NCBI GenBank assembly: GCA_937873745.1
Contig: CALMYZ010000047.1
Span: 1-48,033, forward strand
Source of the DNA: an uncultured Candidatus Saccharibacteria bacterium
GTDB lineage: Bacteria; Patescibacteriota; Saccharimonadia; Saccharimonadales; Saccharimonadaceae
DNA length: 48,033 bases
Direction: 5' to 3'
Numbering within the stretch: position 1 is the stretch's first letter; every line of letters starts with the position of its first letter. The position numbers were made by a program, and so were the translations under genes. Shown piece by piece: positions 18,145 to 48,033 of the stretch. The notes beneath the pieces were generated by a model, which did not search any database, was not told the origin of the DNA, and saw only the letters and a program-made list of their open reading frames with translations.

Positions 18145-20663
18145 AGTTTTAGGAGCGCCCGGCAAACTTCTTCTTGGTTGTTTTCGATCAGCTCAACTCG
18201 AGCTTCGATACTGCTCCTACCGAGTGCTATGACTCGACTGAGGGCTGGTAGTTGGCTGAGTGGTTCAAAGAAGCTGGTGTAATCTTCTAGCTCTTCGCGG
18301 CGTACTAATCCTGTGGCTGCGTAGCGTGGATAATCGTCGAAACTTTTGTCGCCACCAAAGGTCTGTTCGATCCACGACCAATTGTCCTTCATCCATTGCC
18401 AGGTAGCTTGGCGAGCATAGCGATTGCGTATCATGTAGACAAACCAACGTCCGGTATCCTGGGTACGGATAAGTGAAGTGTCTGTTAGGTTGGTCAGTAG
18501 CCTTTGGTTGACGGCACTGTCTTTTGACGAAGTTAGGCCGATGGCGATGTCCATCTGCAGGTCGGCTGAGTTGCTAGACTCATAGAGGCTCAGGAGTGTG
18601 TCTACGGGGTCTGGCGCAAGCTCGTGTCGCACAACAGCACTATAGATAATGGAGCGTAGTTCTGGGTCTAACTGCTCGGTGTCTTGGCTGATGTAGATAT
18701 TTTTTACCATATCTAAGACCTCGGCGTCTTCGCTGTAGACTGCCATGCCGATGATAGTGGCACGCAGTCTGCTGTCGCCTTCGTTTTCACCAGGTTTAGC
18801 CTCCCAGCCGAGTCGCTGATATTCGCGCTGAGCTAACTTGTAAGATAGCTGTTTTAGCTTTTTCTCGGCTTCTTGGTTGTTTTCGACGAACTTCTTTAGC
18901 TCACCCAGTGCGAGACCGATGACGCTCCAGACGTGCTCATCCGTCTCGTCGGCATAAGCGTCGAGTATCGGTATGAGGCTGGCTGGGCTGATAAAGCCAG
19001 CTTGGGCGAGTAGGGTCTGTTCGTGAAGGAGCTGCAGGCGAGCGACCGGGCTGAGTTTGCCGGCACGCTTGCGTTCGAGTAGCGCTGAGATATGTTCCGG
19101 TGTGTAGTGCGTGATGAAGTGTGCTGTGTCGCCGTCGTTTAAGATTACTGGTGAGATGTGCTGACGCTCGATAGTAGCTTGCTCGGCTTCGAACAGCTCA
19201 GGCATTTCTGTGCAGGCTGAGCCAAGTGGGATTGGCCAAGTACGCTTCGTCTGCTCGTCGTGCTTACCGATGAAGAATTGTTGCTGGCTTAGTTCGACAG
19301 AGCCTTCTTTCTGCTCGACACCGACAACTGGATAGCCGGGCTGCGATATCCAGGTATTCATAAAGTCAGTAATATCTTTGCCGCTGGCTCGGGACAGTTC
19401 GTGCCACAGGTCATCACCCTGGGTATTGCTGTAGGCGTGTTTCAGGAAATACTGCTTGAGACCGGCCTGGAAGGCTTCGGCACCGATGTAGGTCTGGAGC
19501 ATTCGCAGCAAGCGTGCGCCCTTGGCATAGACTATTGCGCCGTCAAAGAGGGTTGATATCTCGTCTGGATGATTGACATCGACCTGAACTGACTGAACCC
19601 CGTCGATAGCGTCGCGCCTGAGAGCCATGATGCTCTCGTTTGACGAAAAGTCTAGCCAGATATTCCAGTCCGGATACAGGGCATCGATAGCAATATATTC
19701 CATCAGCGTAGCGAAGCTTTCGTTGAGCCAGAGATTATTCCACCATTCCATAGTGACTAGATTGCCAAACCATTGATGGCTGAGCTCGTGTGCTATAACA
19801 GTGGCGATGTAGCGCTTGCTAGATATACTGGTGGTTTTTGGATCAGCCAAGAGAGCCATCTCGCGGTAAGTGATGAGTCCCCAGTTTTCCATCGCACCAG
19901 ACGAGAAGTCTGGTAGGGCGACATGGTCGGACTTCGGTAGTGGATATGGTGTGTCGAAATATTCATCGAAGAAATCGATCGTCCTAGTAGCTACTTCTAG
20001 TGCGAAATCCAGACTCTCGGCGCCCTGAACCGGCGTAGCCCAGATATTGACCTCGACACCGCCATTAGTAGTAGAGGTTTTTTTGTGAAGCTCGCCGACG
20101 ACCCAGGCTAGTAGGTAAGAGCTCATGCGTGGACTACGTTCAAACTTCGTGACCAGCCTGCCTTCTTCTTCGCGCTGCCAGTCGACGGGCATATTTCCAA
20201 GCACTGTCTGACCGGTCTCGGTGGTAAGTGTCAAGTCGAAGGTTGCTTTGGCGGCTGGCTCGTCTACGCAAGGGAAGACTTCTCGAGCATGATGACTCTC
20301 GAACTGGGTGGCTAGAAGTTCTTTTTTGACACCCTCGTGCTCGAAGTAGCAGGGGTATAGGCCGTGCATAGCGTCGGTGATCTTGCCATCAAAGCCGAGT
20401 ACGATGATGTGTTCACCCGGCTGGAGCTCCGACTGGCTAAGTATCAGCTCGTCGTCATCGCCAAGCTCGTGGCTAGCCTCGCGACCGTCTATCGTGACAT
20501 CTGATATAGCCAAGTCTTTGGCATGAAGCTTGATTTTATCCTGGAGAGATTTGCCGCGCAGAGCTAGCGTGCCGTGAAATTCTCGCTCCTCGCGCTTGAG
20601 TACGATAGATAGGTCGTAGTGTTCTGGTATAAATGTTTCGATAAGTCGTGATACTGTTTGCAT
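18141..20663 (-). CDS. pepN: M1-family aminopeptidase N
   Basis: GAMEN exopeptidase motif and HELSHQWFGNLVTMEWWNNLWLNESFA (HExxH-18-E). 840 aa with an ERAP1-like C-terminal domain. Confidence 0.93.
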   Translation of the reverse strand: MQTVSRLIETFIPEHYDLSIVLKREEREFHGTLALRGKSLQDKIKLHAKDLAISDVTIDGREASHELGDDDELILSQSELQPGEHIIVLGFDGKITDAMHGLYPCYFEHEGVKKELLATQFESHHAREVFPCVDEPAAKATFDLTLTTETGQTVLGNMPVDWQREEEGRLVTKFERSPRMSSYLLAWVVGELHKKTSTTNGGVEVNIWATPVQGAESLDFALEVATRTIDFFDEYFDTPYPLPKSDHVALPDFSSGAMENWGLITYREMALLADPKTTSISSKRYIATVIAHELSHQWFGNLVTMEWWNNLWLNESFATLMEYIAIDALYPDWNIWLDFSSNESIMALRRDAIDGVQSVQVDVNHPDEISTLFDGAIVYAKGARLLRMLQTYIGAEAFQAGLKQYFLKHAYSNTQGDDLWHELSRASGKDITDFMNTWISQPGYPVVGVEQKEGSVELSQQQFFIGKHDEQTKRTWPIPLGSACTEMPELFEAEQATIERQHISPVILNDGDTAHFITHYTPEHISALLERKRAGKLSPVARLQLLHEQTLLAQAGFISPASLIPILDAYADETDEHVWSVIGLALGELKKFVENNQEAEKKLKQLSYKLAQREYQRLGWEAKPGENEGDSRLRATIIGMAVYSEDAEVLDMVKNIYISQDTEQLDPELRSIIYSAVVRHELAPDPVDTLLSLYESSNSADLQMDIAIGLTSSKDSAVNQRLLTNLTDTSLIRTQDTGRWFVYMIRNRYARQATWQWMKDNWSWIEQTFGGDKSFDDYPRYAATGLVRREELEDYTSFFEPLSQLPALSRVIALGRSSIEARVELIENNQEEVCRALLKL

Positions 20664-20698
20664 ACTACTATTGTAGCAAGTCGCTATAATAAAGACAG

Positions 20699-21358
20699 AT
20701 GAAACAATTACGCCGCCGCCGACTAGTAGTAGTAACTATCTTTTTGGTAGTGGTGAGTGTAGCGGCTCTAAATCATCAAGACTTGTATCAGCCGGTTTCG
20801 CAAGTTTCGGTAAATAAGGCTTCTAAGGTTGATGCCGATATAGATAAGCTGCCGGTCAAGGGTCGCGCACCAAAAACTGGCTATAAGCGGTCGCAGTTTG
20901 GCAACGGTTGGAGGCGGCAAGAGGGTTGCGATACGCGCAACATTATATTGTACCGAGACCTCAAGCAAGCGGTGGTAGACGACAACTGTCGGGTGCGCAG
21001 CGGCAGGCTAGACGACCCGTACACAGGCAAGCTAATTGATTTTGTGCGTGGACCAGAAGCCAGCCAGCTGGTACAGATAGATCACGTAGTGGCATTGTCA
21101 AACGCCTGGCAGACTGGTGCTCAGCAACTGACTCGCCAGCAGAGGGAAGATTTTGCAAACGATCCGCTCAATCTCTTGGCGGTAGATGGAGCTGTCAATC
21201 AGCAGAAATCTGATGGCGACGCAGCGACCTGGCTGCCACCCAATAAGGCTTTTCGCTGCCAATATGTCGAGCGTCAGGTATCCGTAAAGCTGCGCTATAG
21301 CTTGTGGGTTACCGCCCCAGAAAAGCAGGCTATCAAAAACGTACTTGCCAAATGCTAA
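20699..21358 (+). CDS. Membrane-anchored/secreted HNH nuclease, DUF1524 (GmrSD C-terminal-like) family
   Basis: N-terminal hydrophobic anchor. Motifs GYKRSQFGNGW...CDTRN, IDHVVALSNAW and AVDGAVNQQKSD are as in stand-alone DUF1524 extracellular nucleases. Confidence 0.75.
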   Translation: MKQLRRRRLVVVTIFLVVVSVAALNHQDLYQPVSQVSVNKASKVDADIDKLPVKGRAPKTGYKRSQFGNGWRRQEGCDTRNIILYRDLKQAVVDDNCRVRSGRLDDPYTGKLIDFVRGPEASQLVQIDHVVALSNAWQTGAQQLTRQQREDFANDPLNLLAVDGAVNQQKSDGDAATWLPPNKAFRCQYVERQVSVKLRYSLWVTAPEKQAIKNVLAKC

Positions 21359-22566: not shown

Positions 22567-22593
22567 CTAGCACTCGCTTGACTAGAGTGCTAG
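22567..22593. promoter_or_regulatory. CIRCE-type inverted repeat (HrcA operator) CTAGCACTC-N9-GAGTGCTAG, doubling as the nusA terminator
   Basis: Matches the CIRCE consensus TTAGCACTC-N9-GAGTGCTAA at 8/9 positions per arm with the canonical 9-nt spacer. The stem extends to 13 bp through flanking A/T runs and is followed by a T5 run. Confidence 0.8.
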
Positions 22594-22606
22594 TTTTTCT
22601 TATACT
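22578..22606 (+). promoter_or_regulatory. clpC promoter TTGACT-N17-TATACT (-35 inside the CIRCE spacer)
   Basis: TTGACT 22578-22583, 17-nt spacer, TATACT 22601-22606. A 60-nt leader with an AAAGGAAGG SD precedes the ATG at 22667. Confidence 0.55.
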
Positions 22607-22666
22607 GGATATAGTAAGTAGTTTTTGTGCTTGCGCCTAACTCTGAAAGGAAGGATAATAGGACTA

Positions 22667-25135
22667 ATGGCTGATGATTTTCACGAATTTGTTACTCACT
22701 TGACTGACAATGCGCGGATCAGTCTGCAGCATGCTGACGCGATTGCGCGTGGTTACGGCAGTCCTTATATCGGCACCGAGCATATTTTGTTAGGTGTTTT
22801 GGCGCAAGGTGCCTCGGTCGGAGCTAAGTTGCTGGCCGATGCCGGTGTCACACTAGACAGGGCTGAGGTGGCACTTAATTTGACACCACGAAATCTAGCA
22901 GTCGGGACTATCGGTAAGGGCTTGTCTGAGACAGCCAAGCTAACTCTAAAGATGAGCTGGGATATCGCTCAAGAGTTTCATCAAGAATTTCTCGGTACCG
23001 AGCACATCTTGTACAGCATTTTAAGCCAGAAGAGTGCTCGGGCTAGTGTATTGCTACGCGACATGAGCGTCGATACTACAGAGTTGAAGTCTGAGTTAGA
23101 AGAGTTCTTCGATCGCCAGACTGGTGACTATCATCAAAACGCCACTACTTCTACGCAGCGTAAGTCTACCAAGGGTGGTGCGCTTGATGTTTTTGGTGTC
23201 GACTTAACTGCCAAAGCTCGTAGCTCACAGCTAGACCCGGTGATTGGCCGTGATCAACAGACCGAGCGAATGATCACTATCTTGAGTCGTCGCACGAAGA
23301 ACAACCCTGTCTTGATCGGTGAGCCTGGTGTCGGTAAGACGGCGATAGTCGAAGGTCTGGCGCAGCGTATCGCTAGTGAAGATGTGCCGGATCATTTGCT
23401 GGACAAACGGGTTGTCCAGCTGGACCTGGCTGCTATGATAGCCGGTACAAAGTATCGGGGTGAGTTCGAGGAGCGCCTCAAAAAAGTGATTAGCGAGCTG
23501 GCCCGTCAAAAAAACATCCTACTATTTATCGATGAATTACACCTCCTAGTAGGGGCCGGTGCCGCCGAAGGTGCGCTCGATGCTGCCAATATGCTAAAGC
23601 CAGCTCTAGCTAGGGGTGAACTGCGTCTAATCGGTGCGACAACATTTGATGAATATCGTAAACACATCGAAAAAGATTCAGCTCTAGAGCGTCGTTTCCA
23701 GACTATCGTAGTGCCAGAGCCATCTATAAAAGACACGGTCGCTATCCTAAAAGGCCTGAAGCCTCATTATGAAAAACATCACAGCGTATCTATAAGCGAT
23801 GAGTTGATAGACGACGCTGTCTATATGGCGGATCGCTACGTCTCGGAGCGTTTTATGCCAGACAAAGCCATCGACGTGATCGATGAAGCCGCGGCCTTGG
23901 TGCGAGTCAAAAGAGCACGCAAGCCAAGTAAGTTACGAGACTACACTAGACAGCTCAATAGTCTAAACGAGAAAATGGAAGAATCTGTCAATGCCAAAGA
24001 CTATGAGCGGGCCGCACTGTATAAGACACGAATTAGTCAGATTACCGAGCAGCTAGAGCAGACTAGTCAGGAGTTCGAAAAGAAGACACCCGTGAAACTT
24101 ACAGATGATGATGTAGCACATGCTATCGCGACTATGACGGGTGTGCCTGTCAAGCGAGTTCAGCGTTCGGAGGCCAAGCTGTTGCGTTCACTCGAGGCGC
24201 ATCTTGCCAAGCATGTCATCGGTCAGACCGAAGCTATCGAAAAAGTCGCCAAGGCAATTCGGCGCAGTCGTAGCGGCGTGTCATCGACCAAACGACCGAT
24301 TGGATCTTTTGTATTTATGGGACCGACTGGTGTTGGTAAGACAGAGCTTGCCAAGGTGCTGGCTCGTGAGGTATTTGGTAGTGATGATGCGCTGATCAAG
24401 ATCGACATGAGCGAGTTTGGTGAGCGCCATAACACCTCGCGCCTACTCGGTGCGCCAGCTGGCTATGTCGGCTATGACGACGGTGGTCAGCTGACAGACA
24501 AGATTCGCCGTCAGCCATATAGCGTGGTGCTGTTTGATGAAATAGAAAAGGCTCATCCAGAGGTTTTTCAGCTACTCCTGCAGCTACTTGAAGACGGCGC
24601 GCTGACTGATGCCAAAGGTAGAGTGGTTAATTTCTCCAATACTATCATCATATTGACCAGCAATCTCGGTGCTGACCGTATGATGAAAGAATCTAGCCTC
24701 GGTTTCGCGGCCAAGACCAAGCAAGACGAGAAGTTATTGGACGAGGCGCACCTAGAAAACGCCGCTGCCGCTAAGGAGGCCCTTGGCAAGATGATGCGAC
24801 CAGAGCTGATCAATCGGTTTGATGGCATCGTTACTTTTAGGGCCCTGACGCGAGCCCAAGTCGGTAAGATATTTGATAATTTCATAGCCGAACTACAGGA
24901 TAGATTGGTGCGTAAAGGTATACACCTGACGGTCAAGCCGGCCGCAAAGCGACTAATCGTCGCAGCTGGGCACGACGAAAAGTTTGGTGCCAGGCCACTC
25001 AGGCGGGCCTTGCAAGATATGCTAGAGCATCCGCTTGCTGAAGGGATATTATCTGGTGAATTCGAAAAAGGTACGGTCGTAAGCGTCGGTACGAAAAAGG
25101 GTGAAATTGAGCTATCTATCGTCACAGAAGCTTAG
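22667..25135 (+). CDS. clpC: ATP-dependent Clp protease ATP-binding subunit ClpC
   Basis: Two Clp_N repeats, two AAA+ modules ([16 protein letters not shown]), a UVR-like linker and an LGF ClpP-docking loop. The ATG at 22667 with its SD is preferred over the track start at 22625. Confidence 0.93.
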
Positions 25136-26111
25136 TCACGGCGGCTCATGGCTGTCGACTATAGTATCGGTCTTGATACTTCTTTCGGTCGGCTGGCTCG
25201 GGTTTAATTACCAGTATGTAGTAGATCAAGTAGCTGTTTGGTCTTATCATTCGGATCCTCAGCTTGATCGGATAATCAATGACACTAAGCTTACTACTAG
25301 GGGCGAGTTTTACCTAAAGGCTTCAAATGCTCAAATAGCCAACGCTGATACATTTAGTAAGCAGTGTAAGAAGACAGAAAATCACAGCGCTATACTCGGC
25401 TGCTATGTAAATAACCGGATATACGTCTACGATATCACCGACGAACGACTAGACGGTATCAAGGAGGTGACGACTGTTCATGAGATGCTCCATGCTGCCT
25501 GGGATAGGCTGGGTAGCCAGCGTCAACAAGAGCTAACCAAGCTACTAGAGGCTGAATATCAGAAGCTCAAGACGGCTGAACTAGAAGAGCGTATGGCCTA
25601 TTATTATCGCAATGAACCGACCGAGATAGCCAATGAACTTCATTCTATATTGCCGACCGAGATATCGGAACTGAGCCCCGAGCTAGAGAGCTACTACTCG
25701 GGCTATACGGACGACAGAGCTGGTATCGTCTCGCTATATGATAAATACAGTGCGGTTTTTGACAGCATTCAGGACGAAGCCGACACGCTCTCGGCTCAAG
25801 CTTCGGCGCTAGCCAGCTCTATAGATACTAATACCAAGTCTTACAACGCCGACATGGCGAGCTTGAACAGCGAAATACAAAATTTTAACTCACGGGCTAG
25901 TAGCGGATATTTCAGCACGCCATCTCATTTCAATACTGCTCGCGCTGGCCTGGTGTCGCGCACAGATAGTCTAGAGTCTAGGCGCAAAGCACTTCAGGCT
26001 GACATAGACAAATACAACAGCATGGTTCAACGTCTAAACGAGCTCAGTACTAAGTCTAATGAGCTGCAGAGCAGTATCGACAGTACGCTGGCAGCTCCAC
26101 CGAGCCTTTAG
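25101..26111 (+). CDS. Membrane-anchored hypothetical protein with HExxH motif (putative metallopeptidase) and Ser-rich coiled-coil tail
   Basis: TM helix at about aa 17-37, two Cys residues, HEMLH at aa 127-131 (nt 25479-25493), and a C-terminal heptad-like Ser/Ala/Asn-rich region. The start (GTG 25101 or TTG 25107) lies inside the clpC 3' end. Confidence 0.6.
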   Translation: MKLSYLSSQKLSHGGSWLSTIVSVLILLSVGWLGFNYQYVVDQVAVWSYHSDPQLDRIINDTKLTTRGEFYLKASNAQIANADTFSKQCKKTENHSAILGCYVNNRIYVYDITDERLDGIKEVTTVHEMLHAAWDRLGSQRQQELTKLLEAEYQKLKTAELEERMAYYYRNEPTEIANELHSILPTEISELSPELESYYSGYTDDRAGIVSLYDKYSAVFDSIQDEADTLSAQASALASSIDTNTKSYNADMASLNSEIQNFNSRASSGYFSTPSHFNTARAGLVSRTDSLESRRKALQADIDKYNSMVQRLNELSTKSNELQSSIDSTLAAPPSL

Positions 26112-42992: not shown

Positions 42993-44279
42993 ATGAAAAC
43001 ATCTGTAAAAAATCTATCCGACACACGTGTCGAGCTAACTATCAAGCTCGGCAAAGAAGAGCTCGCGGCAGCCGAACAGGTTGCCCTAACCAAGCTCGCC
43101 AAAAACATCAAAGTACCAGGCTTTCGCGCCGGCAAAGTCCCAGCTAGCGTAGCCGCTAAGCACGTTGAGTCTGGCAGTCTAGCGCAGCAAAGCCTAGAGG
43201 ACGCCGTTTCCAGGGCTGTGGCTGAGGCATTTATCGCCGAAGATATCCAGGCACTAGAGCGTCCAGCTGTCGATATCAAGAAATTTGTTCCGTCTAGCGA
43301 GGTAGAGTTTACAGCCGAAGCCGACATCTTGCCAAAGATCAAGCTCGGTGACTATAAGAAGCTCGGCGTTAAGCAAGAATCCGCAAAGGTAAGCACCGCT
43401 GAAGTAACCGATATCATCGATCGTATGTTAGAAGGCAGCGCCGAGAAGGTAGCTGTCGAGCGTGCGGCCAAAGACGGCGACGAAGTGGTTATCGACTTTG
43501 TTGGCAAAAAAGACGACGTCGCTTTTGACGGCGGGGCAGCCCAAGATCACAGCCTCAAGCTAGGTAGTAATAGCTTCATCCCTGGCTTCGAAGAGGGAAT
43601 TGTCGGCAAAAAAGCCGGCGATAAGTTTGATCTCAAGCTGAAGTTTCCAAAAGATTATCACGCCGACGAACTAGCCGGTGCTGACGTGGTGTTCGAGACT
43701 ACTCTCAAGGCCGTCAAAGAGTCAAAGCAGCCAAAGCTTGACGATGACTTCGCCAAGAAAGTCGGTCAAGGTGTCGAAACTGTCGCCGAACTAAAAGCCG
43801 ATATCAAGAAAGAGCTTCAGGCTCAAAAAGACCGCGAGTCAGCTGAAAAGCACAAAGACAATCTAGTAGCAGCCCTAGTAGACACCAGCAAGGTACCGGC
43901 TCCACAAGTACTGGTCGACGATCAGGCTCGAAGCATCGAGCAAGATATGCGCCAAAATCTTATGTATCAGGGTATCACGCTAGAGCAATATATCAAGACT
44001 CAGAAATTCAAAGACGAAGCCGATTGGCAGAAAAAAGAAGTTGCGCCGGCTGCCGAGAAGCGTGTCAAGGCAGGCTTGGTCTTGGCTGAGCTTAGCAAAG
44101 AGCTCAAGGCAGAGGCTAGCGCCGATGAACTAGCTGAGCATATAAACCTATATCGTCAGCAATACGCCAACAATCCAGACGCGCTCAAACAATTCGAGCA
44201 GCCAGAAGTACAGCGCGACATCGCCAATCGCTTACTGACCGAAAAGACAGTCGATAAGCTCGTCGAGCTAAATAAATAG
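42993..44279 (+). CDS. tig: Trigger factor
   Basis: N-terminal ribosome-binding block PGFRAGKVP, FKBP-type PPIase domain (FIPGFEEGIVGKKAGD), and a C-terminal helical domain. Followed by clpP, as in most bacteria. Confidence 0.93.
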   Translation: MKTSVKNLSDTRVELTIKLGKEELAAAEQVALTKLAKNIKVPGFRAGKVPASVAAKHVESGSLAQQSLEDAVSRAVAEAFIAEDIQALERPAVDIKKFVPSSEVEFTAEADILPKIKLGDYKKLGVKQESAKVSTAEVTDIIDRMLEGSAEKVAVERAAKDGDEVVIDFVGKKDDVAFDGGAAQDHSLKLGSNSFIPGFEEGIVGKKAGDKFDLKLKFPKDYHADELAGADVVFETTLKAVKESKQPKLDDDFAKKVGQGVETVAELKADIKKELQAQKDRESAEKHKDNLVAALVDTSKVPAPQVLVDDQARSIEQDMRQNLMYQGITLEQYIKTQKFKDEADWQKKEVAPAAEKRVKAGLVLAELSKELKAEASADELAEHINLYRQQYANNPDALKQFEQPEVQRDIANRLLTEKTVDKLVELNK

Positions 44280-44298: not shown

Positions 44299-44325
44299 CT
44301 AGCACTCTATTTACACGAGTGCTAG
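44299..44325. promoter_or_regulatory. Second CIRCE-type inverted repeat CTAGCACTC-N9-GAGTGCTAG, doubling as the tig terminator
   Basis: The arms are identical to the copy at 22567-22593. The 9-nt spacer is TATTTACAC, followed by a T5 run. Confidence 0.8.
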
Positions 44326-44339
44326 TTTTTGTGTATAAT
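44310..44339 (+). promoter_or_regulatory. clpP promoter TTTACA-N18-TATAAT (-35 inside the CIRCE spacer)
   Basis: TTTACA 44310-44315 and TATAAT 44334-44339. The ATG at 44346 lies only 6 nt downstream of the -10 and has no SD. Confidence 0.55.
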
Positions 44340-44345
44340 GAAAGC

Positions 44346-44942
44346 ATGACAAAGCCATCGAACTATCTAGTACCGACAGTTATCGAGAAGACTCACGACG
44401 GCGAGCGCGCCTTCGATATCTATTCTCGCCTGCTAAACGAACGCATCATCTTCTTGGGCGAAGACGTCAATGAACACACGGCCAATATAGTAGTAGCTCA
44501 GTTGCTTCATCTGGCATACGAAGATTCGAGTAAAGACATCAAGCTCTATATCAATAGCCCTGGCGGTAGCGTCTACGACGGCCTGGCTATCTACGACACT
44601 ATCCAGTATATCAAGCCAGATGTGCAGACTATCGGTATCGGCTTGCAAGCTAGCATGGGAGCCTTCTTGCTCAGTAGTGGCACCAAGGGTAAGCGCTTCG
44701 CTCTGCCAAATAGCCGGATTATGATCCATCAGCCATCGAGCGGTACTCACGGTAAGATTACTGATCAAGAGATTACGCTCAAAGAGGGGATTTACCTCAA
44801 ACAGCAACTCAACAAAATCCTGGCTAGCAACACCGGTCAAAAGATTTCTAAGATTGAAAAAGACGCCGATCGTGACTTCTGGATGAGTGCCGATGAGGCC
44901 AAAGATTACGGACTGATCGACGCAGTTATCACCAAAGCCTAA
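44346..44942 (+). CDS. clpP: ATP-dependent Clp protease proteolytic subunit ClpP
   Basis: [38 protein letters not shown] is a typical N-terminus. Catalytic Ser (GLQASMGAF), His (MIHQP) and Asp are present. The track start at 44319 falls inside the CIRCE stem and was rejected. Confidence 0.95.
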
Positions 44943-44960
44943 TCAAAACTCGCAAAACAC

Positions 44961-44989
44961 TTGACTATTTGCCTAGAAACCTCCACAAT
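44961..44989 (+). promoter_or_regulatory. Candidate rpoB promoter TTGACT-N17-CACAAT
   Basis: TTGACT 44961-44966, 17-nt spacer, CACAAT 44984-44989. This gives a leader of about 130 nt with hairpins (GTCCGT...ACGGAC, palindrome TCGGCGCCGA) before the GAGGAG SD. Confidence 0.4.
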
Positions 44990-45122
44990 GGATAACTAGA
45001 AGTAGTGTAGCTGTGGTTACCTATGTCCGTGAAGTGTGGCAGCATAACGGACTGATCACTAGCTTGGGAATCTTCGGCGCCGATTACCCAACAACAATTT
45101 AAATGCGAGGAGTGTTATACAC

Positions 45123-48033
45123 GTGGCAAAAACTAAGCCTACCGAGCAGACAAAGCGTGTCTTTTTTACCAAAGACGATACCGCTCTGCCTGTTCCAGAT
45201 CTCATCGCTCACCAGCACAATTCATGGCGTGAATTCGTCGATACTGGTTTGAGTGAAATATTTTCAGAACTAAATCCAATCGAAGACTATACCGGTCAAA
45301 AGCTCGAATTGCGATTCAAAGAGTATAGATTTGATGAACCAAAAAACAGCGAATCTTATGCCAAAGAAAATAACCTGACATTTGATGCTCCGCTACACGC
45401 CAACGTCGAGTTGACCAACAAAGTCACAGGTGAGGTCAAAGAGCAAGAAATTTACCTCGGTGATTATCCTTGGATGACTGAGCGTGGCTCTTTCATCGTC
45501 AACGGTACTGAGCGTATCGTTATCTCTCAGCTGATCCGTTCGGCTGGTGTGTTCTTCACTGCCGACAGCGTAGCTGGTCGCAATTACTACGGTGCCAAGC
45601 TCATCCCGGGCCGCGGTGCTTGGCTAGAGTTCGAGACCGCTTCAAACGGCGCAATCTACGTCAAGATCGATCGTCGCCGCAAGCTACCAGTCACTACGCT
45701 TATCCGTGCACTGGGCCACAGCAAGACTAGCGAAGTTCGCAGCTTGTTCGAGGATGTCGATACCGGTGACGTCAAATATATCGAAGCTACACTAGAAAAA
45801 GACACCACTCGTGGTTCAAACGAAGCCCTCATCGAGGTTTATCGCCGCCTACGACCAGGTGACTTGGCGACTGTCGAAAACGCTCGTACTATGATCGAGC
45901 GCATGTTCTTTGATTTCAAGCGCTTCGACTATAGCCGAGTTGGTCGCTACAAGCTCAATCAACGACTAGGTATGGACGTACTCAACACTGCCGAAAACCG
46001 CGTCTTCCAGATGAATGACCTAGTGGCTATCGTGCGTGAGTTGATCCGCCTAAACAATACCCAAGACGCACCAGATGATATTGACGCTCTGTCGAATCGC
46101 CGCGTCAAGCTAGTTGGTGAGCTCGTCGGTCGTCAATTCCGCGTCGGTATGCTCCGCATGCAGCGCAACGCCATGGATCGCATGTCTATGTCAGATCTAG
46201 AGACTGTCACACCTAGCCAGCTTATAAATGCTCGCCCAGTGGTAGCAGCAGTCCGTGAATTCTTCGCGAGCTCACAGCTTTCGCAGTTGATGGACGAGGT
46301 TAACCCACTATCTGAGCTTTCACACAAGCGACGCCTTAGCTCGATGGGCCCTGGTGGCTTGTCACGTGAGCGTGCTGGCTTCGATGTGCGCGACGCTCAC
46401 CCGACTCACTACGGTCGACTATGTTCAGTTGAGACACCAGAAGGTGCCAACATCGGACTCGTACTAAACCTCGCGACATATGCTCGTATCAACGAATACG
46501 GCTTTATCGAAACTCCTTATCTCAAGGTAAAAGACGGCAAGGTGACCGACGAAGTAGTCTACATGGACGCTTCGCAGGAAGCTGTCGAAGTTATCGCCGA
46601 CGCTGGTGCCGAGCTAGACAAAGACGGCCGTTTCGTCGCCGAGCGTGTATCTGCCCGCAATGAGCTCCTGCCAGAGCAAGTTGATGTCAGCGATGTTACC
46701 TATATGGACGCCGCCAACAAGCAGATTCTTGGTTCGACCGCCTCATTGGTTCCATTTATCGAGAAAAACCGTATCGACCGTTCATTGACCGGCTCAAACA
46801 TGCAAAAGCAGGCCGTACCACTACTAGACCCACAGGCTCCTGTGGTCGGTACTGGTATCGAAGCCGAGGTCGCTCGCAACACCAGCCAGTTGATTACAGC
46901 CGAAGCCGATGGTGAAGTTGTTCGTGCCGATGGTGACGAAGTTCACGTCAAGTACAAAGACGGCGTCAAGAAGTACGAGCTAGTCCACTTCGCTAAGTCA
47001 AATGACGACCGCTCAATCAACCAAAAGACTCGCGTCGAGCGTGGCCAAAAGGTCAAGCAGGGCGACATCTTGATCGAGGGTGCTTCTGTGGCTGACGGTG
47101 AGTTAGCGCTTGGTCGCGACCTGACTGTCGCCTTCATGCCATGGTCTGGTTACAACATGGACGACGCGATTGTCCTCAGTGACCGACTAGTCAAAGAAGA
47201 CGCTCTAACTAGCATCAATATCAAGGACTACACTGTAGAGGTTCGTGAAACCAAGCTCGGTGACGAGATTGTAACTCGTGATATTCCAAATGTCAGCGAA
47301 GAATCACTCCGCAACCTAGACGAGCAGGGTATCATCCAAGTTGGTGCTGAAGTCCGTGCGGGTGATGTTCTAGTCGGCAAGATTACTCCGAAGGGTGAGC
47401 AAGAGCTCAGCTCCGAAGAGCGACTACTACGCGCTATCTTCGGTGAAAAAGCCAAAGACGTCCGCGATACAAGCCTTCGCCTCAATCACGTTGGCGGCGG
47501 CAAAGTTGTCGGCGTCAAGGTCTTTAGCCGTGATAATGGTCATGAGCTCAAGTCTGGTGTTATCATGCAAGTTCAGATTTTCATCGCTCAGTTCCGCAAG
47601 ATTTCAGTTGGTGACAAGCTAGCTGGTCGTCATGGTAATAAGGGTGTCGTGGCTCGTATCTTGCCAGTCGAAGACATGCCATTTATGGAAGACGGTACAC
47701 CTATAGACGTCATCCTAAACCCACTCGGTGTCCCGAGCCGTATGAATATCGGTCAGCTGTTTGAGACTCACCTTGGTATGGCAGCGCGTGCGCTTGGCTA
47801 CAAGGTCGCAACTCCACCGTTCAATGGTATTTCAGACGAAGTAATCTCTGGTGAGCTAGAAAAAGCCGGCTTTGCTCGCGACGGCAAGAGCCAGCTATTT
47901 GACGGCCGCACCGGTGAAGCATTCGAAGAGCGCACTACTGTGGGTGTCATGCACATCATCAAGCTACACCACATGGTGAGCGACAAGATCCACGCTCGTT
48001 CGACTGGTCCATACACTATGGTTACCCAGCAGC
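45123..48033 (+). CDS. rpoB: DNA-directed RNA polymerase subunit beta, 5' partial (continues beyond the window)
   Basis: Hand translation from the GTG at 45123 gives VAKTKPTEQTKRVFF...PDLIAHQHNSWREF...GSFIVNGTERIVISQLIRSAGVFF. Near the end, GRHGNKGVVARILPVEDMPFMEDGTPIDVILNPLGVPSRMNIGQ is in the same frame. It is missing from the ORF track because no stop lies within the window. Confidence 0.95.
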   Translation, partial: MAKTKPTEQTKRVFFTKDDTALPVPDLIAHQHNSWREFVDTGLSEIFSELNPIEDYTGQKLELRFKEYRFDEPKNSESYAKENNLTFDAPLHANVELTNKVTGEVKEQEIYLGDYPWMTERGSFIVNGTERIVISQLIRSAGVFFTADSVAGRNYYGAKLIPGRGAWLEFETASNGAIYVKIDRRRKLPVTTLIRALGHSKTSEVRSLFEDVDTGDVKYIEATLEKDTTRGSNEALIEVYRRLRPGDLATVENARTMIERMFFDFKRFDYSRVGRYKLNQRLGMDVLNTAENRVFQMNDLVAIVRELIRLNNTQDAPDDIDALSNRRVKLVGELVGRQFRVGMLRMQRNAMDRMSMSDLETVTPSQLINARPVVAAVREFFASSQLSQLMDEVNPLSELSHKRRLSSMGPGGLSRERAGFDVRDAHPTHYGRLCSVETPEGANIGLVLNLATYARINEYGFIETPYLKVKDGKVTDEVVYMDASQEAVEVIADAGAELDKDGRFVAERVSARNELLPEQVDVSDVTYMDAANKQILGSTASLVPFIEKNRIDRSLTGSNMQKQAVPLLDPQAPVVGTGIEAEVARNTSQLITAEADGEVVRADGDEVHVKYKDGVKKYELVHFAKSNDDRSINQKTRVERGQKVKQGDILIEGASVADGELALGRDLTVAFMPWSGYNMDDAIVLSDRLVKEDALTSINIKDYTVEVRETKLGDEIVTRDIPNVSEESLRNLDEQGIIQVGAEVRAGDVLVGKITPKGEQELSSEERLLRAIFGEKAKDVRDTSLRLNHVGGGKVVGVKVFSRDNGHELKSGVIMQVQIFIAQFRKISVGDKLAGRHGNKGVVARILPVEDMPFMEDGTPIDVILNPLGVPSRMNIGQLFETHLGMAARALGYKVATPPFNGISDEVISGELEKAGFARDGKSQLFDGRTGEAFEERTTVGVMHIIKLHHMVSDKIHARSTGPYTMVTQQ

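Follow-up and report, generated by a model that had tools for sequence, protein, structure and literature searches.

We found that the inverted repeat between tig and clpP in a 48,033-nt stretch of Saccharibacteria DNA (the whole stretch that was analysed, hereafter the window) is very probably a CIRCE operator for the repressor HrcA, superimposed on a sigma-70-type clpP promoter. The repeat reads CTAGCACTC-N9-GAGTGCTAG (27 bp, 44299-44325; Table 1), its two arms are perfectly complementary, and it differs from the canonical CIRCE consensus TTAGCACTC-N9-GAGTGCTAA (PMC545781, PMC8762339) by 2 mismatches, which are both outermost and symmetric. A motif search that allowed up to 3 mismatches matched the 48-kb window only twice, here and at 22567-22593 upstream of clpC, with 0.02-0.03 matches expected in the shuffled window and two matches reached in 0/100 shuffles. 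An earlier note on this DNA had described the clpP site as the second of two copies with identical arms; the motif search recovered the other copy, and when the letters were re-read the coordinates that the note gave for the clpP locus were all correct. A promoter scan independently called TTTACA-18-TATAAT at clpP with 11/12 matches. Counted from the A of the ATG at 44346, the operator extends from about -47 to -21, TTTACA occupies -36 to -31 and TATAAT occupies -12 to -7, so that the -35-like box falls within the CIRCE spacer; the note's placement of both promoter boxes is supported by the scan and, as described below, by a layout that is conserved in relatives. An Rfam scan of the window returned two tRNAs only and no match at the clpP repeat.

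Table 1. Features of the clpP locus and of the sister locus at clpC (window coordinates)
Feature	Position	Strand	Description
tig (trigger factor)	42993-44279	+	TIGR00115, 3.4e-113
CIRCE left arm CTAGCACTC	44299-44307	.	9 nt; letters read, motif search
CIRCE spacer TATTTACAC	44308-44316	+	9 nt; encloses -35-like TTTACA
-35-like hexamer TTTACA	44310-44315	+	inside CIRCE spacer; promoter scan
CIRCE right arm GAGTGCTAG	44317-44325	.	9 nt; letters read, motif search
T5 run	44326-44330	+	adjoins right arm, within promoter spacer
-10 box TATAAT	44334-44339	+	18 nt past TTTACA; promoter scan
clpP CDS	44346-44942	+	NF001368, 1.7e-90; ATG 44346-44348
Sister CIRCE	22567-22593	.	arms identical to clpP copy; spacer GCTTGACTA
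clpC -35 TTGACT	22578-22583		inside spacer GCTTGACTA
clpC -10 box TATACT	22601-22606		clpC promoter
clpC-type AAA+ ATPase	22667-25135	+	Clp_N, UVR, two AAA domains

The genes on either side of the operator are co-directional, and the tig stop codon (44277-44279) lies 19 nt ahead of it. The longest clpP ORF opens at GTG 44319; ATG 44346 is the start that is conserved in all orthologues. The stretch from clpP to the window end (44943-48032) contains no clpX; rpoB comes next and is cut off by the window end. The CIRCE-regulated ClpC is likely to be the obvious ATPase partner of ClpP. A search of the window, of the 80 loci described next and of the 10 kb that precede the window found no hrcA, groEL, dnaK or ctsR.

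A Tig-homology scan with one genome per species yielded 80 loci (Tig identity 44-75%), all labelled Saccharibacteria, Saccharimonadales or close CPR names, which places the window itself in a Saccharibacteria (TM7) genome. The clpP comparison set consisted of 56 Tig-selected loci plus the window, a selection that is independent of the repeat. CIRCE was present upstream of clpP in 53/57 loci (≤4 mismatches, mostly 0-2), with a -35-like box in the spacer; the layout is conserved throughout the phylum. Across 938 kb of Saccharibacteria DNA (the window and the 80 loci) there were 55 CIRCE-like sites with ≤3 mismatches, and every one of them lay at clpP except the window's clpC site, with no strays. 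The inner 7 positions of each arm were 98-100% conserved (1.9-2.0 bits; 57 sites), and the upstream flank from -20 to -4 carried ≤0.2 bits per position in the same sites. The earlier note had proposed an alignment of orthologues, with conserved arms and a drifting spacer and flanks as the expected outcome. Conserved arms and drifting flanks are what we observed, but the spacer does not drift freely: its positions 3-5 are constrained to TTG (T, T and G/T, in 72-84% of the orthologues), the beginning of the -35 hexamer, which reads TTGACx, TTGCAx or TTTACA. Conservation also reaches past the arms on both sides, with T at the first four positions after the right arm in 68-84% of relatives and three A-rich positions ahead of the left arm (57 sites).

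The two sites in the window share their arms and T-run only. We rejected a recent duplication or a mobile repeat as their origin because their flanks and spacers differ and because each site is independently conserved in relatives, a pattern that speaks for selection, as the note had argued. CIRCE has been lost from clpP in four lineages (L029, L037, L041 and L049): L041 retains the right half-site and a leaderless promoter, L029 retains TATAAT with the operator gone, and in L037 clpP lies 6 nt after tig with neither CIRCE nor promoter. The outermost operator positions covary symmetrically (T..A in 38 sites, C..G in 12, T..G in 5 and C..A in 2); we set this covariation aside as evidence, RNA pairing and a symmetric protein site being indistinguishable by it. 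The same operator-end variant recurs within one genome (CTAG in 2/2 sites of the window; 3/4 sites in L215), and this recurrence hints at a lineage-specific co-variation of operator and HrcA.

Only 6 nt (44340-44345) separate TATAAT from the clpP ATG, and they contain no Shine-Dalgarno (SD) motif. In the 53 clpP loci with CIRCE, a gap of 16-19 nt separates the -35 box from a TATACT, TACAAT or TATAAT box. The distance from the end of this second box to the conserved ATG is 6-10 nt in 46/53 loci, with 36 of them at exactly 6 nt and 6 at 7 nt. An SD motif was found in 0/46 of these short-gap loci, whereas the 7 clpP loci with leaders of 22-170 nt all carry one (GGAG, GAGG or AGGA at the proper distance; 7/7). 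A clean split of this kind between long and absent leaders is a prediction of leaderless transcription, and we regard it as strong comparative evidence for the leaderless clpP mRNA that had been proposed from the window sequence. The predicted transcription start is A44346, 7 nt past the last -10 base, because 7 nt is the usual distance from a -10 box. In 13 lineages an in-frame (A/G)TG stands 15 nt upstream of the clpP ATG, its position not being conserved, and in those lineages a longer ClpP product is formally conceivable.

The leaderless geometry is not peculiar to clpP. About a dozen genes of the window share it, lacking an SD and having TAnnnT at 6-9 nt from the ATG, commonly at first-in-operon genes (the leaderless-type starts include 16190 rnhB, 20663 pepN, a GmrSD_C-domain gene, 26130 radA, 40488 trmH, 41041 and 42993 tig), and the internal operon genes of the window use GGAG. 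The window thereby resembles the leaderless 'group C' genomes of GeneMarkS-2, in which a Pribnow box lies 6-8 nt from the start (PMC6028130): the box is close to first-in-operon starts that lack an SD, and internal genes keep theirs. Group C comprises Actinobacteria and Deinococcus-Thermus, whereas the phylum here is Saccharibacteria, which our literature search did not find described as leaderless-rich. As a separate matter of annotation, the longest-ORF starts of gatC, pilB, the malic enzyme gene and rnhB are probably too far upstream. We also observed that pepN (minus strand) and the GmrSD_C-domain gene (plus strand) are only 35 nt apart (window 20663-20699). Within that gap the pepN ATG is preceded at 6 nt by TACAAT and the ATG of the GmrSD_C-domain gene at 8 nt by TATAAT; two leaderless promoters face each other here, and the -35 region of each falls in the coding sequence of the adjacent gene.

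The sister CIRCE sits between nusA and clpC, 22 kb from the clpP copy and with radA downstream, and clpC is leadered (about 54 nt) and has an SD. We looked up six ClpC homologues (79-85% identity, several named Saccharimonadales), which gave ten loci, and all of these ClpC-selected loci carry a perfect CIRCE 75-85 nt before the clpC ATG with TTGAC in the spacer. The site is kept irrespective of its upstream neighbour, which is nusA, an ABC transporter gene on the opposite strand or ChaB; since the upstream gene varies, the element belongs to clpC and not to the nusA 3' end.

Some further features of the clpC neighbourhood were recorded in passing. The clpC leader (22613-22666) shows conserved blocks in 7 lineages (the window and L205, L207, L209, L210, L212 and L214), namely a GCAAG...GCTTGC(G) inverted repeat that may form a 5' stem-loop, an AGG SD, and GATAATAGAAC immediately ahead of the ATG. 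A conserved protein of ~333 aa without a Pfam match is always encoded between clpC and radA (window 25101-26111; L205-L214), its ORF overlapping the clpC 3' end by 10-35 nt in most loci, and may be a ClpC-associated factor. One of the ClpC-selected loci, L209 (GCA_033792395.1, JARAUW010000001.1, 957,675 bp), encodes a ClpC (P0278) that carries the NCBI name Streptomyces caniscabiei in a layout of the Saccharibacteria type (nusA ... CIRCE-clpC-unknown-radA); the Streptomyces assembly has probably taken in the genome of a Saccharibacteria epibiont.

When the exact arm variant of the window was used to scan metagenomes, 120 loci were obtained. Those of high GC are ordinary groES sites; those of 37-53% GC have the motif before clpP, clpC (beside nusA and radA), hrcA, dnaJ and dnaK, and their proteins share 60-85% identity with proteins from confirmed Saccharibacteria loci. 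Three groES loci with the motif (L137, L164 and L193) were left out because they have no genes in common with confirmed Saccharibacteria loci; among the fetched loci, groESL, which is the one constant target of HrcA in other bacteria, was not assignable to Saccharibacteria. In L098, L102, L104 (840-1550), L144, L173 and L179 the motif is immediately followed by a gene for an HrcA of 230-243 aa, and the HrcA of this clade matches PF01628 (5e-18), PF03444 (5e-6) and, over the winged helix, PDB 1STZ. In a database search (proteins P0121-P0240) its closest relatives showed 82-98% identity and lengths of 236-248 aa, and are named Candidatus Saccharimonas, Saccharibacteria or Saccharimonadales by NCBI and 'heat-inducible transcriptional repressor' by JGI. 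In loci that were selected solely by HrcA protein identity (GCA_020428275.1, GCA_049662805.1 and a 0.97-Mb JGI contig), CIRCE again stands ahead of hrcA-grpE, 21 nt from the hrcA ATG, dnaK has two CIRCEs, and dnaJ is preceded by one at 18 nt. HrcA is widespread among Saccharibacteria contigs, and to judge from these relatives the window's own genome would encode such an HrcA as well. The tandem CIRCEs at dnaK (L215 8248-8322 and L218 14252-14324; also L097, L131, L171 and L185) differ in position, one lying around the -35 box (TTGACA in the spacer) and the other, more degenerate, just past the -10 box in the leader.

At about 236 aa, the clade's HrcA is ~100 aa shorter than characterised HrcAs (about 340 aa), and its alignment to PF01628 begins no earlier than profile position 88. 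An AlphaFold model of this short protein is of low confidence (pLDDT 60), and a Foldseek search with the model returned 1STZ first and then GAF domains, which suggests a protein made of a winged helix and a GAF-like domain without ~100 aa that possibly correspond to the inserted dimerisation domain. Regulation by this short HrcA may accordingly differ from that by characterised HrcAs. A 118-aa HrcA fragment used as a query, after a check against PDB 1STZ, returned only short fragments from other phyla. Our literature search found no work linking HrcA, CIRCE or leaderless starts to Saccharibacteria or CPR; a TM7x transcriptome paper has clpB and clpP changing together and does not address HrcA.

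Because the earlier note had also taken the repeat for the tig terminator, we considered its behaviour as RNA. It would form a stem of 9-12 bp (dG -16.4 to -18.2 kcal/mol, z -3.6 to -6.3) with U5 behind it, and tig has no other candidate terminator. The stem and the U5 support that claim; a hairpin loop of 9 nt (3-8 nt in a textbook terminator), a terminator scan that called nothing at the clpP repeat, and a T-run that is independent of orientation weaken it, the strength of the run being 3.50/5 with opposite-strand upstream ORFs (n=8) and 3.76/5 with co-directional ones (n=42). In relatives the median distance from a co-directional upstream stop to CIRCE is 28.5 nt, and some of these stops fall within CIRCE. 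A second role of the hairpin as a terminator or insulator of tig is therefore plausible but unproven. A stronger version would make the repeat purely structural, an intrinsic terminator of tig here and of nusA at the other copy, with no repressor involved. The stable stem with its T5 and the presence of a co-directional stop within 35 nt of the repeat in 25/42 relatives would suit such a role, which we nonetheless hold to be very unlikely: terminators conserve structure and not sequence, but the inner 7 bp of the arms match the CIRCE consensus almost without variation across lineages whose Tig proteins are merely 47-75% identical. The element, moreover, tracks clpP, clpC, hrcA, dnaK and dnaJ and not gene 3' ends, is present even where the upstream ORF is on the opposite strand, and has the loop length and the negative terminator scan against it.

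We also judge it unlikely that clpP is mainly co-transcribed with tig, with CIRCE acting as a roadblock or RNA element and translation starting without an SD. Such read-through is suggested by the co-directional tig gene, which ends so close to the repeat, by the lack of a terminator call there, by the L037 lineage, in which clpP follows tig directly with neither operator nor promoter, and by M. pneumoniae, in which lon stands under the tig promoter plus CIRCE (PMC7737663). It is difficult to reconcile with the 11/12 promoter that overlaps the repeat, with a distance between -10 box and ATG that stays at 6-7 nt in 42 lineages despite opposite-strand neighbours and gaps of up to 2.7 kb, or with SD motifs that appear only with long leaders, and the hairpin with its U5 would itself hinder passage. 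Finally, the absence of hrcA from the window and the atypical shortness of the clade's HrcA might be taken to point to a different protein on the operator, whether CtsR-, HspR- or ClgR-like or unknown, but we regard this as extremely improbable given that the motif is the canonical HrcA site, that hrcA in this clade sits directly behind the same motif in the classic autoregulatory layout, and that the 938 kb of Saccharibacteria DNA contain no ctsR-like ORF. A CtsR operator at clpP or clpC was rejected in a separate scan for the CtsR heptad RGTCAAANANRGTCAAA (≤3 mismatches), which gave no match near clpC (22.5 kb) or clpP (44.3 kb) and 8 weak matches elsewhere in the window, mostly in coding sequence.

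An HrcA operator nested in the clpP promoter can be set against several known systems. In B. subtilis, CIRCE is situated past the transcription start and belongs to the 5' UTR, whereas the Saccharibacteria CIRCE encloses the -35 box and the predicted clpP transcript has no UTR. The canonical HrcA-CIRCE system (dnaK and groESL of B. subtilis, and many other bacteria) has the same 9-N9-9 inverted repeat, and the two further agree in a repressor gene that stands behind its own operator and in a regulon that contains dnaK, dnaJ and grpE (PMC545781, PMC8762339); they differ in that conserved A-rich and T-rich runs adjoin the Saccharibacteria arms, that the targets include clpP and clpC, and that HrcA has about 236 aa in place of about 340 aa. 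A closer parallel is offered by M. pneumoniae, in which the HrcA regulon comprises dnaK, dnaJ, groESL, clpB, lon, pepA and pip, with CIRCE between tig and lon and lon driven from the tig promoter (PMC7737663). Both cases combine a reduced genome, control of proteases as well as chaperones by HrcA (predicted for the present case), and the order tig-CIRCE-protease; the protease is Lon (plus ClpB) in M. pneumoniae but ClpP/ClpC here, and the CIRCE described here carries its own promoter, with an mRNA that is predicted to be leaderless. For S. salivarius, the title of Chastanet & Msadek 2003 (cited in PMC6305308) indicates dual control of clpP by CtsR and HrcA, which would likewise place clpP within an HrcA/CIRCE regulon; as far as that title allows a comparison, our case differs in that no CtsR box or ctsR gene was found, so that HrcA apparently acts alone, and in that clpC is included. 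The Firmicutes CtsR regulon (clpP, clpC and clpE) would resemble the one proposed here in that a single heat-labile repressor co-regulates clpP and clpC, and the clpC-radA neighbourhood is common to both, but the repressor and the operator are different (CtsR recognises a direct heptad repeat), and clpC is preceded here by nusA or other genes and not by ctsR-mcsA-mcsB.

Joint control of ClpC and ClpP by HrcA had been called unusual in the earlier note. The CIRCE is indeed conserved at both genes, but the control is unusual only in a relative sense, in view of the precedents in M. pneumoniae and, at the level of its title, in the S. salivarius study. Since protease precedents exist, the clpP/clpC case adds a member to a known kind of HrcA regulation and does not define a new system: the locus extends the well-understood HrcA/CIRCE system and is not a new mechanism. 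What is specific to this lineage is that the spacer contains the -35 box, that the output is predicted to be leaderless, that A/T runs extend the palindrome, that HrcA is short and that clpP and clpC are both included.

We infer HrcA binding, repression and stress induction at clpP from the anatomy of the site and from what is known of the family. Because the operator encloses the -35 box, bound HrcA should exclude RNA polymerase: an HrcA dimer on both arms would cover the box and block polymerase binding. Under proteotoxic or heat stress HrcA would become inactive and the clpP promoter would fire, a mode of stress sensing that we model on GroE titration in B. subtilis (quoted in PMC7737663). 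The derepressed clpP mRNA would begin at the AUG, and with no 5' UTR and no SD its control would be purely transcriptional. The occurrence of the cassette at clpP and clpC, and at hrcA-grpE, dnaK and dnaJ of relatives, leads us to propose that HrcA coordinates chaperones and the ClpCP protease in this phylum, as appears from the distribution of its operator. A more sweeping reading, which we hold to be less likely than not, would make the truncated HrcA the single master regulator of proteostasis, acting at hrcA-grpE, dnaK, dnaJ, clpP and clpC through a three-in-one cassette in which the arms serve as operator, the loop supplies the -35 box and the hairpin with its T-run serves as terminator or insulator, with leaderless output at clpP, hrcA and dnaJ. 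Were it true, each gene of the regulon would be an isolated unit under HrcA control only.

Very little has been learnt about gene regulation in Saccharibacteria and other CPR (Candidate Phyla Radiation) bacteria, which are ultrasmall, mostly uncultured epibionts, and our analysis offers a testable regulon for them (HrcA acting on hrcA-grpE, dnaK, dnaJ, clpP and clpC). It also offers a promoter model, with TTGaca in the operator spacer, a TAtAcT -10 box and a start at the AUG, that should improve the annotation of start codons and operons in Saccharibacteria/CPR genomes. The locus suggests that a reduced genome has merged its chaperone and Clp-protease stress circuits under one repressor, comparable to what mycoplasmas have done with Lon.
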